Shown here: positions 61,601-64,000 of the stretch, in pieces
Position numbering within the stretch: position 1 is the first letter of the stretch
Layout: each line of letters begins with the position of its first letter
IMG/VR virus record: IMGVR_UViG_3300014826_000005
Span: 1 to 64,000 of that record
From: a virus
Lineage: Duplodnaviria > Caudoviricetes
Length of the DNA: 64,000 nucleotides
Strand: one strand, 5' to 3'
Notes under the pieces: generated by a model
Told to the model about the DNA's origin: nothing
The model's database searches: none
Seen by the model: the letters and a program-made list of their open reading frames with translations, nothing else
Position numbers and translations under genes: made by a program

Positions 61601-62938
61601 AATAGTGTTAATAGTGCTATTGGTGGGAAGTATTCGTCAAGTGGCGGCACTTTAAATGGTGACATAACATTCCCTGAAATTGGTAGTACTGGTTCAAGTA
61701 AAGGTATTAACTGGTCAGGAGGTACTGATGGTGCTAGAATCTATTATAAAACAACGGCTCAAGATGCAGGCCATTTAGTATTTCAGGCTACAGACGATGC
61801 TGACGCCGTCATTGACTTTGAATGGAATATTGGAGGTACAGTTTCTAGAAAATCATACATCACATCGGATGGTGTTTATCATGGTACTGCTACTTATGCT
61901 ACTAGTGCTGGATCGGCAAATAGTGTTGCTTGGGGCAATGTAACTGGTAAACCATCTACATATACTCCATCGTCGCATACACATACTATCGCTCAAATAA
62001 CTAATTTAGAGTCAACTTTAGACGGTAAGGCAGCTAAATCACACACTCATGGTATTAGTGATATTACTAATTTACAAAGTACTATCAACACCATTAATAG
62101 CAATAAAGCTGATCTGTCGTATTTAAATAAAAACTTTTACAGTACGACAAGTGTCGATAATATAATTAATGGTTTGAATTATAAAGCAATCAGTCTTAAT
62201 GGAGGTAATACTGCAAACTATCCTTACCATAGATTCTTATCTATACAGAATCTAACAGGTCAATGGAGTGATACTGTAGGTATTTATCTAATAGATAAAA
62301 GATATGATGGTGGGGGATACGGTATTGTAAAAGTAACATTACGAACAAATGACAAAATTTCAAATTACTCGGTTTCTATAAGATGGCTCGCAAGATCTTC
62401 ATCGTTTGCAGCAGCAGATATATCGTATGGTGCATATTTACATGATAATAAGTTAGATGTCGATGTGTTTATGAAATGCGGTGGCTGGCCTAGAACGAAA
62501 GTATATAATATATTTGGCGCATCAGATTGGACTATGATGAGTTCTGAAGAATCTAATGATACAACTACAACAAATAGACTAAAATCTGTTGAATGTTATT
62601 CTTCTTTAGCAGATGCTGGAACAAAAATACATTCAGCATCTTATTCACGTACTGGTGAAGGTGTAGATGAAGGTGTTGTAGCTAGAGCTACTAATGCCGA
62701 TAATGCGTCTAGTGTAGCTTGGGGCAATGTAACTGGTAAACCATCTACATATACTCCATCATCACATACACATACTATCTCTCAAATAACTAATTTACAG
62801 TCAACTTTAGATAGTAAAGCTGCTGCAAATCACACACATCCATACATTTCGACATCTGTCAATTATGTTCTTATTACAGATGAAACAAATTTAACAGCAT
62901 ATGATGCAAGTTCCGCAAAGTGGAATGCACCTTCATAA
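58685..62938 (+). CDS. long tail fibre protein with modular repeats; C-terminus probably exchangeable
   Basis: 1417 aa Thr/Ser/Gly-rich; 3x ITKANIGL...ALGY and 5x HPGY...GLYK.TVD..GHV...LGIP repeats; HTH motifs. Confidence 0.9.
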   Translation: MATTDQKDLSIQMVHIDDQKDVHQLYPKTKDKNVTVESTNKALPTGISSLKDLVDKLGDTAFTSSTVIGITTDERNKLKGIEEGAQVNMVDGVKGDAETYYRTGDINITKANIGLGSVENKSSATIRSEITSQNVTSALGYTPPKQDTTYSDATTQVHGLMSTDDKVKLDGIAPGAQVNSITGVKGDNETTYRTGNVNITKANIGLTNVEDKSSATIRGELTSKNVTDALGYAPPRVNTTYEEATTTTDGLLSSEDKTKLDSIESGAQKNTVTGVKGYNESAYRRGDIVITKANIGLTNVEDKSSETIRGELTSKNVTDALGYTPPKQDTTYPPANGSTLGLIKTGGSLTLTSGVATVNDNSHKHTIANITNLQSSLDSKLNTSLKGAKNGLAELDENGLVPSTQLPSYVDDVIEVNMGSDLTSATLANDSPVTPEAGKIYVDLASNKTYRWSGTTFVVISDTIALGETSTTAFDGARGKVAYNHSQSAHARVDATLTQASTTNGNIKINGTETKVYTHPGYTAQKSGLYKVTVDGSGHVSAVTAVTKADITALGIPGQDTNTTYVAATSTANGLMSSSDKAKLDGIASGANAYTHPGYTSRTSGLYKITVDSLGHVSAVASVTKADITGLGIPGSDTTYSTMTGATTDADGSKGLVPAPSKGSNSRYLRSDGTWVTPPNTTYPNASSSVNGLMSASDKAKLDGIASGANKYTHPGYTAYDSGFYKVSVDSTGHVAAAVAVSKSDITSLGIPGQDTTYADATTSAHGLMTAAMVSKLNGIASGANAYSHPTYSSHASGLYKITVDGTGHVSAVASVTKSDIAALGIPSSDTTYGLMKGATSSVDGATGLVPAPSKGDSSRYLRSDGTWVTPPNTTYSDATTSAHGLMTAAMVSKLNGIASGANAYSHPGYTSRSSGLYKITVDSTGHVSAVSSVTKADITALGIPGQDTNTTYGVVSSSSNGLMSPTMLNTLNSVNSAIGGKYSSSGGTLNGDITFPEIGSTGSSKGINWSGGTDGARIYYKTTAQDAGHLVFQATDDADAVIDFEWNIGGTVSRKSYITSDGVYHGTATYATSAGSANSVAWGNVTGKPSTYTPSSHTHTIAQITNLESTLDGKAAKSHTHGISDITNLQSTINTINSNKADLSYLNKNFYSTTSVDNIINGLNYKAISLNGGNTANYPYHRFLSIQNLTGQWSDTVGIYLIDKRYDGGGYGIVKVTLRTNDKISNYSVSIRWLARSSSFAAADISYGAYLHDNKLDVDVFMKCGGWPRTKVYNIFGASDWTMMSSEESNDTTTTNRLKSVECYSSLADAGTKIHSASYSRTGEGVDEGVVARATNADNASSVAWGNVTGKPSTYTPSSHTHTISQITNLQSTLDSKAAANHTHPYISTSVNYVLITDETNLTAYDASSAKWNAPS
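60230..61545 (+). repeat. five copies of a roughly 50-aa fibre shaft module with interspersed linker repeats
   Basis: Y(T/S)HP.Y...SG(L/F)YK.(T/S)VD..GHV..........LGIP..DT..Y seen five times. Confidence 0.85.
62097..62105 (+). other. putative crossover core in the tail fibre gene (ATAGCAATA, frame AT|AGC|AAT|A)
   Basis: Same 9-mer and same reading phase as the sites at 63405-63413 (-) and 63480-63488 (+). Confidence 0.65.
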
Positions 62939-62946
62939 TAAAGAAA

Positions 62947-62978
62947 AAATATAGAATGGGCTAGCCCATTCTATATTT
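62947..62978. terminator. 32-bp perfect palindrome between convergent fibre-tip frames (bidirectional terminator)
   Basis: AAATATAGAATGGGCTAGCCCATTCTATATTT. Confidence 0.75.
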
Positions 62979-63411
62979 ATTTTATACCCATACATAAAAT
63001 ACTTTCTACTGTTATACTATCAGCAGCAAATGCGATAATATTACTACCATTTCCGTTCTTAGTTCCACAACACTGTATTCTTGAGCCTTCAGCAAATAGA
63101 GTTAGCGTATTTCCATTAACTTTTCCTCTAGTAATATTTAAACTATAAGAATAGCTATAACCTCCACCGTCTCCATAAGGAACAATTAACCCACAGTCAA
63201 ATGTACCATCAGAATTTATTCTAGTAAATCCACCAACATTATAATATCCACTAGCCTGACCCTGTATTCTGATATATTTATACTTAGATATATTAGGAAT
63301 TGTTAATGTTAGATCCTTACTAAGTTTATAAGCTCCACCTGGAATATAAGAAGAAAAATCCACAATTTCAAACTTACTAATTACTTCAGCTCTTGCTGTA
63401 TTGATATTGCT
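62977..63411 (-). other. silent tail-fibre tip cassette B (144 codons, no RBS/ATG)
   Basis: Frame open from the core: SNINTARAEVISKFEIVDFSSY...ILCMGIK; the in-frame GTG at 63363 has no RBS. Confidence 0.7.
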
Positions 63412-63488
63412 ATATAATCTATAAAGAATATCTTAAACCTAAGTGTATAACTAGGTTTAAGATATTTATATTTTCATAAATAGCAATA
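63405..63488. repeat. back-to-back putative recombination sites: TAGGTTTAAGATATT-N13-ATAGCAATAT on each strand
   Basis: 15-bp inverted arms at 63427-63441 and 63452-63466; each is 13 nt from an outward-facing core. Confidence 0.8.
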
Positions 63489-63853
63489 TTGCAGGCATTG
63501 ATCATGAAGCATTATTATACACCGATTATTCATCTAAATGGAGACGAAGTGATGGTGTACATATTAAGAACGTTGAAGCATGTGTAGTTATCACAAAGGG
63601 TCACACTTGCGAAATTTATATAGCAGCAGTTGTGCAAGGGGGATGGAATAGCGGTGATACTAGCCCGTGGGTACTAGGTAATTTACCAGCACCTCTTAAC
63701 AATGGATTTCAATGTGTTGGATATAATGCCAACGACGGGCGTCCTATTAGATTCACTGTTAATGAAGACGGTTGGTTGAAACCATGGTATAATAAAGAAC
63801 CTTTAGTTGATAGTGTAACGTTCTCTGTCCATACTTGTTATATAACTAAATAG
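63482..63853 (+). other. silent tail-fibre tip cassette C (123 codons, no RBS/ATG)
   Basis: Frame open from the core: SNIAGIDHEALLY...VLGNLPAP...IRFTVNEDG...FSVHTCYITK, resembling a fibre-head beta-domain. Confidence 0.7.
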
Positions 63854-63857
63854 TATA

Positions 63858-64000
63858 CTAATTCTTAACAAGAATAGATGTAACGATAATTCTAGCATTG
63901 GATGGTATTGTTTGTTCATATTCTGAAATATTCATAACATAGACATTAGCGTTTGATCTAGTAATATCATCAATATTATCAAAGCCACCTTTGATAGATG
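63858..64000 (-). other. 3' end of a convergent frame (putative cassette D), truncated by the window
   Basis: 46 open codons SIKGGFDNIDD...IIVTSILVKN then TAG, 4 nt from the stop of cassette C. Confidence 0.5.

Follow-up and report, generated by a model that had tools for sequence, protein, structure and literature searches.

The window analysed here, a stretch of 64,000 nucleotides (nt) comprising positions 1 to 64,000 of the IMG/VR record IMGVR_UViG_3300014826_000005, ends in a modular tail-fibre gene followed by a group of short open reading frames (ORFs) that, as we argue below, very probably form one bank of a dispersed system for exchanging receptor-binding tips by DNA inversion. The contig behind the window is a 72,166-bp fragment with a GC content of 29.6%, which according to CheckV is about 30% complete (jumbo genome of about 230 kb). 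Its source is an AR9-like jumbo phage from ruminant-gut metagenomes that encodes split RNA polymerase (RNAP) beta subunits, a chaperonin and homing endonucleases and that shows no sign of lysogeny; the nearest relatives of its UvsX protein are those of the Bacillus phages BpSp, PBS1 and AR9 (29–31% identity). The end of the window and the contig beyond it contain the following features, where positions above 64,000 are those of the contig.

58685–62938, plus strand: modular tail-fibre gene of 1417 amino acids (aa), with HxH (His-x-His) repeats and knob modules; adjoins the cassette bank.
62097–62105, plus strand: core 9-mer inside the fibre gene (..TIN/SNK.., where the slash marks the junction), a candidate recombination site; its Ser is codon 1139.
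62099–62938, plus strand: module A, 279 aa, the native distal fibre (knob, HxH repeat and conserved C-terminus).
62939–62986, unstranded: hairpin resembling a bidirectional terminator, at which the fibre gene and cassette B converge; 14-bp stem, −18.9 kcal/mol, z = −5.7.
62977–63411, minus strand: silent cassette B, type T2, 144 aa counted from SNI; stop at 62977–62979.
63405–63413, minus strand: core site of cassette B.
63414–63479, unstranded: spacer 1, 66 bp, hairpin- or cruciform-forming.
63480–63488, plus strand: core site of cassette C.
63482–63853, plus strand: silent cassette C, type T1, 123 aa.
63858–64000, minus strand: silent cassette D, type T3, 99 aa, with its 3′ part in the window and its core at 64151–64159 of the contig.
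From 64226 of the contig, plus strand: cassette E, 116 aa.
From 64654 of the contig, plus strand: stub F, 25 aa.

The 9-mer ATAGCAATA, hereafter the core, occurs in the window at 62097 (plus strand), 63405–63413 (minus strand) and 63480 (plus strand), as well as at 539–547 and 56080–56088. An original prediction, made from the letters of the window, had noted that the core in the fibre gene also opens the B and C frames in the same codon phase and that neither frame has a start led by a ribosome-binding site (RBS); both the coordinates and the phase, which is xAT AGC AAT Axx (Ser-Asn) at all three sites, are confirmed. Five copies in the window, where 1.8 are expected, are reached in 5 of 100 shuffles, which puts the count alone at chance level. 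What goes beyond chance is a 38-nt inverted repeat (63404–63441/63452–63489) in which an identical 15-nt arm lies 13 nt from each core. The core, 9–10 bp long and without dyad symmetry (ATA-GCAA-TAT), immediately precedes each cassette on its 5′ side, and one such crossover site is found at each junction: ATAGCAATA(T) is read N/SNI at five cassette sites of the contig and at eight more in a second locus described below. The copy at 56080–56088 stands in the same codon phase in an amidase gene (..GY/SNR..) and is kept in the related loci L007 and L008; it differs from the true sites in having G/C-containing bases on its flanks, and is probably a chance occurrence.

Six cores lie on the contig, all in one phase and in alternating orientation, and they are organised into conserved core-palindrome-core units of 84 bp, the first of which recurs beyond the window at 64151–64234 and 64579–64662. 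The 84-nt units fold with z-scores of −6.8 to −7.7. Spacer 1 consists, in order, of a 13-nt linker (type 1), a 15-nt arm (63427–63441), a 10-nt centre, a second 15-nt arm (63452–63466) and a 13-nt linker (type 2), and this unit recurs in reverse orientation as spacer 2 (64160–64225 of the contig). The hairpin or cruciform of spacer 1 possibly serves as a bidirectional terminator or insulator. In the third spacer (64579–64662), a degenerate core, AATAGTTTT, abuts the end of cassette E, and the intact core heads the conserved 25-aa stub F, SNNAKNTNNVSSIRFFIILNKKIHV (64654–64735; L001:6580–6736), which could be a null (tip-less) variant or what is left of a lost cassette.

The layout that had been proposed, A(+)/B(−) followed by C(+)/D(−) with convergent stops, holds: A and B meet at the hairpin at 62939–62986, and the stops of C and D converge 4 bp apart, D being the further minus frame that had been seen to converge at 63858. 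The locus does not end at 64000, and the bank runs to 64662 of the contig. The additional core and arm units anticipated beyond the window are present; the recombinase looked for along with them is found neither there nor anywhere else in the 72-kb contig, and the window itself contains none, as had been stated. All of the cassettes open at the core, are promoterless and have no start of their own, the first in-frame starts lying well inside the frames (GTG 63363 in B and GTG 63632 in C).

Partners of the cassettes: the head module and, possibly, the fibre gene

The head module, as read from L007, is a segment of about 450 bp that contains an RBS (aaaggagg), an ATG and a 114-aa head ending in ...SQIDSKVxAIN, after which SN follows at the core. 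Upstream of the head lies an AACA-N6-TA late-promoter motif, AACATTCGATTA, of a type that the spacers in the window lack; because this motif occurs 53 times in the 72 kb, its presence is weak evidence. In L007 the head is joined in frame, through ...VDAIN/SNI..., to a B-type cassette to give a protein of 258 aa. Across public assemblies the head (89–100% identity) is fused at the core to five tip types.

Tip type T2/B: P0122.
Tip type T0/G: P0123 and P0128.
Tip type T1/C: P0124, P0125, P0127 and P0129.
Tip type T3/D: P0126.
Tip type T5: P0130.

All of the cassette fusions observed (P0122–P0130) use this separate 114-aa head with its own RBS and ATG. Cassette B matches the last 144 aa of P0122 at 86% identity, cassette D is 68% identical to the tip of P0126, and cassette C is 37–52% identical to the tips of P0124, P0125, P0127 and P0129. 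The head junctions have 9–18 bp in common with the cassette sites, which is shorter than any assembler k-mer, indicating that the head-tip fusions are not assembly chimeras. The head module is itself flanked by two inverted cores, and being bounded in this way it moves among cassette banks.

These fusions bear on the simplest alternatives, namely that internal GTGs serve as the starts of B, C and D, which would then be small genes of the ordinary kind, or that the rearrangements described below are artefacts of assembly. Gene callers did give a 128-aa ORF for B from GTG 63363, and 84-bp repeats could confuse short-read assemblers. Nevertheless, the frames are open and conserved upstream of the GTGs, up to the core; the residues upstream of the GTG are included in the head fusions; and the cassette frames have no RBS. 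The head junctions, moreover, with less shared sequence than an assembler would need, recur in independent assemblies from different samples and pipelines. On this frame, fusion and junction evidence we reject independent GTG translation and assembly artefact, both of which we regard as extremely improbable.

The first 35 residues of the head do not vary between this lineage and a second one described below, and a similar N-terminus is encoded by another fibre-like gene, located at about 50.7 kb of the contig. Judging from this resemblance, the N-terminus of the head (MKCYYP..GNRIGFKTPEAC) probably docks the protein to the baseplate. No homologue of the 114-aa head was found among GenBank phages, and scans of JGI metagenomes, GTDB genomes and IMG/VR with the head returned nothing; scans of IMG/VR likewise gave 0 hits for the spacer palindrome and none for Cpn60. 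Since the JGI, GTDB and IMG/VR collections seem not to include this phage group, the negatives from them have little power.

The predicted folds of tips B and C resemble those of phage receptor-binding domains. AlphaFold (AF2) models, built from small family alignments, had mean predicted local distance difference test (pLDDT) scores of 77.8 for cassette C and 80.9 for cassette B. The model of C matches the receptor-binding protein (RBP) heads of the lactococcal phages TP901-1 and p2 as well as adenovirus and reovirus knobs (template modelling (TM) score about 0.6, E 6e-4), and the best matches of the model of B are the C-terminal domains of the phage K RBP gp144 and baseplate chains of phi812 (TM about 0.53). 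The idea that B and C serve as receptor-binding tips is thereby supported at the level of modelled structure. An exhaustive HMMER search with cassette B returned only 8 relatives, none of them informative.

In the strain from which the window derives, the head module occupies a second locus. P0128, a 294-aa protein consisting of the head and a G tip, is encoded on a 58-kb scaffold that also has an identical copy of the fibre gene and bank. The head core is at position 6,896 of that scaffold and the closest bank core at 28,415, which places the module about 21.5 kb downstream of the window, past the end of the contig. This second locus (locus 2, the bank beside the fibre gene being locus 1) has at least 8 more cores and cassettes, and the strain as a whole has at least 13 full cassettes of about nine sequence types. 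Inside one invertible segment is a uvsX-like gene of 418 aa (phrog_97, 6e-38; T4 UvsX 3io5). It sits between G-type and T5-type cassettes (L010:4813–6069, from the same strain and about 23 kb past the window bank; L012:10966–12222; L029:10714–11970), and across genomes it is seen in both orientations relative to the head.

Other genes are found around locus 2. A block of three genes (174, 169 and 240 aa) lies between cassette sites inside another invertible segment, with orientation and neighbours that vary between genomes (L010:1826–3676, L016:1620–3470 and L028:15737–17587; L026:6913–7392). The 169-aa protein has a hydrophobic segment, and its gene also adjoins a bank in the second lineage; the 240-aa protein matches a 'virion structural protein' PHROG. 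Near locus 2, homing-endonuclease-like genes (HNH_3/HTH) lie within or beside the split genes for the RNAP beta subunits (L012:5741–6697, L012:1–461; L009:1–74; L023:12568–13368), and the RNAP gene that forms two ORFs of 386 aa and 224 aa in L012 has as its counterpart in L009 a single ORF of 780 aa.

The fibre gene is itself modular. Its relatives P0002–P0007 carry PTR/Phage_fiber_rpt Pfam domains, and P0002, P0004, P0005, P0006 and P0007 differ by insertions and deletions of whole modules at the HxH linkers between knobs, while the last ~35 residues (..HPYISTSVNYVLITDETNLTAYDASSAKWNAPS) are kept in all relatives compared.

According to the original prediction, the constant gene of the system is the fibre, cut at about residue 1138: inversion between 62097 and 63413 would fuse it to tip B, and other tips would follow. 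The core in the fibre is exact, on the correct strand and in phase, and it uses a codon, AGC, that accounts for just 3 of the 172 Ser codons of the gene; 0.0095 in-frame copies are expected from codon usage and about 0.02 from shuffles. The sequence 5′ of it reads ...CAACACCATTA, after which ATAGCAATA follows, and the next base is A rather than T, as it is in stub F. On these counts the fibre's own core is unlikely to be there by chance and looks like a junction. Further in favour of a role for the fibre, the convergent arrangement of A and B round a shared terminator mirrors other invertible segments, and the fibre junction, TIN/SNKADLSY, resembles the head junctions AIN/SNI and QIN/SNKADLSY, the latter from the second lineage, in which cassettes starting with SNK are present.

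Yet among 5.8 billion clustered proteins none was found that joins the constant part of the fibre to a cassette, and none that joins the head to A. The close relatives returned by a search with the constant part of the fibre (82–97% identity) have neither the core nor an NSN junction, and all of them end in an A-type C-terminus. Module A, including KADLSYLNKNFY, is native fibre sequence in core-less relatives, its knob and C-terminus being found in P0004, P0005 and P0007, and KADLSYLNKNFYSTTSVDNI is native in P0240, again without a core. All relatives have one conserved extreme C-terminus, which a swap would delete; in the strain of P0002 (L007, L008 and L020), the only relative with fetched DNA, the bank still adjoins a fibre that is core-less; and the strain of the window shows one arrangement in three assemblies. 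In addition, the 9-mer is in phase in the amidase gene at 56080 as well, presumably by chance. A scan of JGI metagenome contigs, a collection seemingly without this phage group, did not find the predicted junction between the fibre and an SNI cassette. The fibre as constant gene is thus not supported in the form proposed, every observed fusion using the 114-aa head, and we think it unlikely that the fibre is the main or only partner of the cassettes. That it is an additional, currently usable expression site is possible, though we lean against it.

Rearrangements at the core and the question of a recombinase

Comparison across assemblies places the breakpoints of rearrangements in core sites. 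L007 and L008 are 100.000% identical over flanks of 14,844 bp and 3,322 bp, and their sole difference is a 450-bp head module in place of a 62-bp spacer between two inverted cores. In L008, which is part of a 231-kb contig, the C–D segment is inverted relative to the window. L009 and L010 match at 99.985% identity for 13.3 kb and lose all similarity at one core, and the K–uvsX segment is inverted directly behind the head core in L029 relative to L012. In L012 and L014 the cassettes agree but the spacer is flipped, which indicates that the crossover occurs in the core and not in the centre of the palindrome. At a larger scale, a 25-kb contig has a gene order in which the G–uvsX–K segment of locus 2 follows on from the Cpn60 flank of locus 1. 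The comparison of related genomes has therefore yielded the rearranged cassette orders that were to be expected if the original prediction was correct, with breakpoints at the 9-mer, and these support its central claim of shufflon-like switching among multiple tips in an AR9-type jumbo phage.

Many short contigs (1–5 kb) with the head begin or end at or near a core or cassette (L011, a Logan contig of SRR948120; L016–L019; L021; L022). This would fit assembly graphs that branch at these points through mixed isomers, and it is suggestive only.

A diverged 266-kb contig, L026, represents a second lineage. Its core is ATAGCAA(T/C)A, its palindromes are similar and have the arms CTAGGTTTAGAT, and its head, of 38 aa, is fused to four tips (P0201, P0206, P0210 and P0212); the banks likewise converge on fibre-like genes. 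The core is conserved between these two lineages, whose heads, linkers and tips have diverged. In L026:8077–18521, one copy of the palindrome has AACCTTAGG/CCTAAGGTT where the others have AAACCTAG/CTAGGTTT, and such complementary changes on both arms hint that base-pairing (in a hairpin or cruciform) rather than sequence is selected.

No 26-bp dyad site with a central 2-bp crossover is found at the bank, where the sole dyad is the spacer palindrome with its arms 10 nt apart. The arms resemble the hix-like sequence TTATCAAAAACC; the hix-like half-sites of the palindrome (...AAACC/GGTTT...) are separated by 14 nt, and the asymmetric core lies 13 nt away. We nevertheless reject the palindrome as a hix-like crossover point, since the linkers swap independently of the cassettes (L012 versus L014). 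The palindromes may instead act as terminators, insulators or accessory sites.

Several proteins encoded next to the banks were considered as candidate recombinases and dropped. The 418-aa protein is UvsX, a 239-aa protein is a fragment of RNAP beta, and a 351-aa protein has a zinc ribbon of the primase-like kind; a 205-aa protein belongs to no family and lacks a resolvase-like N-terminus, and for the 169-aa protein a role as membrane protein or holin is probable. PHROG and Pfam scans of 28 flanking proteins revealed no recombinase. PF00589 is also absent from the IMG/VR records behind L002–L005, which are records without the cassette system.

That switching would be frequent and programmed we infer from the existence of genomes that are free of single-nucleotide polymorphisms (SNPs) and differ only at cores, from cassettes that are silent yet in phase, and from a core that is conserved. 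A number of points weigh against this interpretation. The seven recombinase or transposase families looked for, PF00239, PF00589, PF02796, PF01548, PF07508, PF01797 and PF07282, are all absent from the 72-kb contig, which represents about 30% of the genome, and no Pfam or PHROG match to a recombinase lies within 10 kb of any fetched locus in either lineage. The isomers stem from different assemblies or samples, the arrangement of locus 1 is the same in three assemblies of this strain, and, at the level of sequence comparison, rare fixed rearrangements are not formally separable from frequent programmed switching. The 84-bp repeat could, in principle, have caused false joins in short-read assemblies, which would account for those differences that are mediated by spacers.

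The same observations can be read as the product of no dedicated switch at all: occasional general or microhomology-mediated recombination, for instance through UvsX or through template switching at hairpins, would become fixed in each strain, and the bank would be an evolutionary leftover. Besides the failure to find a site-specific recombinase in any sequence searched and the constancy of locus 1 across the three assemblies, the presence of the uvsX-like gene inside the system speaks for such a process, as does the fact that the 84-bp units are 90–99% identical and palindromic, and hence homologous in both orientations. The stretches that the head and leader junctions have in common with the cassette sites, however, are no longer than 9–18 bp, and it is precisely in them that the breakpoints lie. 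The cassettes, although start-less and promoterless, remain open and in one phase in DNA of 30% GC; the core, which uses a codon seldom found in the fibre gene, has been kept in two diverged lineages; and the only differences between genomes without a single SNP over 18 kb are those at cores, which argues for fast switching and against slow fixation. We therefore regard general recombination without a dedicated switch as improbable.

The proposed system and its relation to known switches

Our preferred interpretation, which we hold with considerable though not full confidence, is that a dispersed multiple-inversion (shufflon) system has one of its banks at 62977 to 64000 of the window, with a continuation as far as 64662 of the contig. 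The bank comprises the promoterless, start-less cassettes B, C, D and E and stub F, with B to E each encoding an alternative C-terminal receptor-binding domain that starts at ATAGCAATA(T), read ..N/SNI... Expression of a cassette would require the joining of its core to the ~450-bp promoter-RBS-ATG-head module, which in this strain is fused, ~21.5 kb downstream, to the G-type tip of P0128. Conservative recombination between inverted cores would flip segments of ~70 bp to more than 20 kb, which would take in uvsX and, in events between the two loci, genes for RNAP subunits and chaperonin as well. Catalysis would be by a site-specific recombinase encoded elsewhere in the ~230-kb genome, and the exchange of tips would be expected to change the host receptor specificity of the phage.

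A more far-reaching version would be a genome-scale shufflon in a virulent-type AR9-like phage, in which the head module and the 1417-aa fibre share at least 13 tips, flips of more than 20 kb carry essential genes, and the recombinase falls outside the recognised invertase families or makes a new use of hairpins; we consider this combination rather unlikely.

If switching is active, a single phage genotype would be made up of host-range variants mixed together, with consequences for host prediction and for phage use, and the genome would exist as many structural isomers, which would explain why assemblies break or differ at these points. A recombinase acting on a 9–10-bp site would then await discovery. 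The sites and junctions identified here are also specific enough to be tested.

Invertible host-range switches are textbook examples of variation in temperate phages, with Mu, P1 and p15B as classical cases and Rin and BV01 as recent ones. The system described here resembles Min of p15B, together with Gin of Mu, Cin of P1 and Pin of e14, in that a constant 5′ part of a tail-fibre protein and alternative 3′ cassettes are joined in frame by inversion at short sites. It also shares with Min-type systems the converging cassette pairs and the presence of helper genes in invertible segments (uvsX here, U/U′ in Mu). Invertase sites of the hix/gix type have a 12-2-12 dyad layout. The core here, in contrast, is asymmetric and 9–10 bp long; no serine invertase (PF00239/HTH_7) was found in the DNA searched; the system, with its mobile expression module, is divided into two or three banks and extends across more than 30 kb; and the carrier is an AR9-like jumbo phage without a sign of lysogeny rather than a temperate phage. 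The multiple-inversion layout of Min is summarised in PMC6109161.

Closer parallels to the site itself are the Rin shufflon of Bifidobacterium prophages, with an 11-bp rix site and a tyrosine-type recombinase (Mavrich et al. 2018, PMC6109161), and the BV01-like tail-fibre shufflon, with a 10-bp motif (PMC13596623). As in the present case, a short asymmetric repeat lies 5′ of each start-less RBP cassette, the tips are dissimilar and include RBP heads of the TP901-1 type, and isomers were seen by comparison of genomes or assemblies. The Rin and BV01 loci, however, are compact (~2–5 kb), have a fixed constant gene on one side and a flanking recombinase gene, and belong to temperate phages, whereas here there are at least 13 cassettes in more than one bank, a movable head module, palindromic spacers and no adjacent recombinase that we could find.

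The pilV shufflon of R64/IncI1 (Rci, sfx) is alike in its multiple-inversion logic, in its asymmetric site with a short core, in having C-termini in one phase and in its inversion-only behaviour, which in our case is implied by the preserved alternation of sites. It differs in its target, a conjugative-pilus adhesin, and in being a single compact locus with a fixed constant region and an adjacent rci gene. In the vsa, vsp and vpma shufflons of Mycoplasma, a single promoter-bearing expression sequence is inverted before silent cassettes, an arrangement that recalls the head module; these systems move a promoter and signal peptide among whole surface-lipoprotein genes on a bacterial chromosome, with a Xer-like recombinase beside the locus. 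Programmed inversions have been surveyed in PMC9881135, and a paper that assembled jumbo phages from the same projects as those sampled here makes no mention of inversions or fibres. Set beside these systems, what is new here is a shufflon that is dispersed, that has a mobile expression module and that is carried by a jumbo phage.

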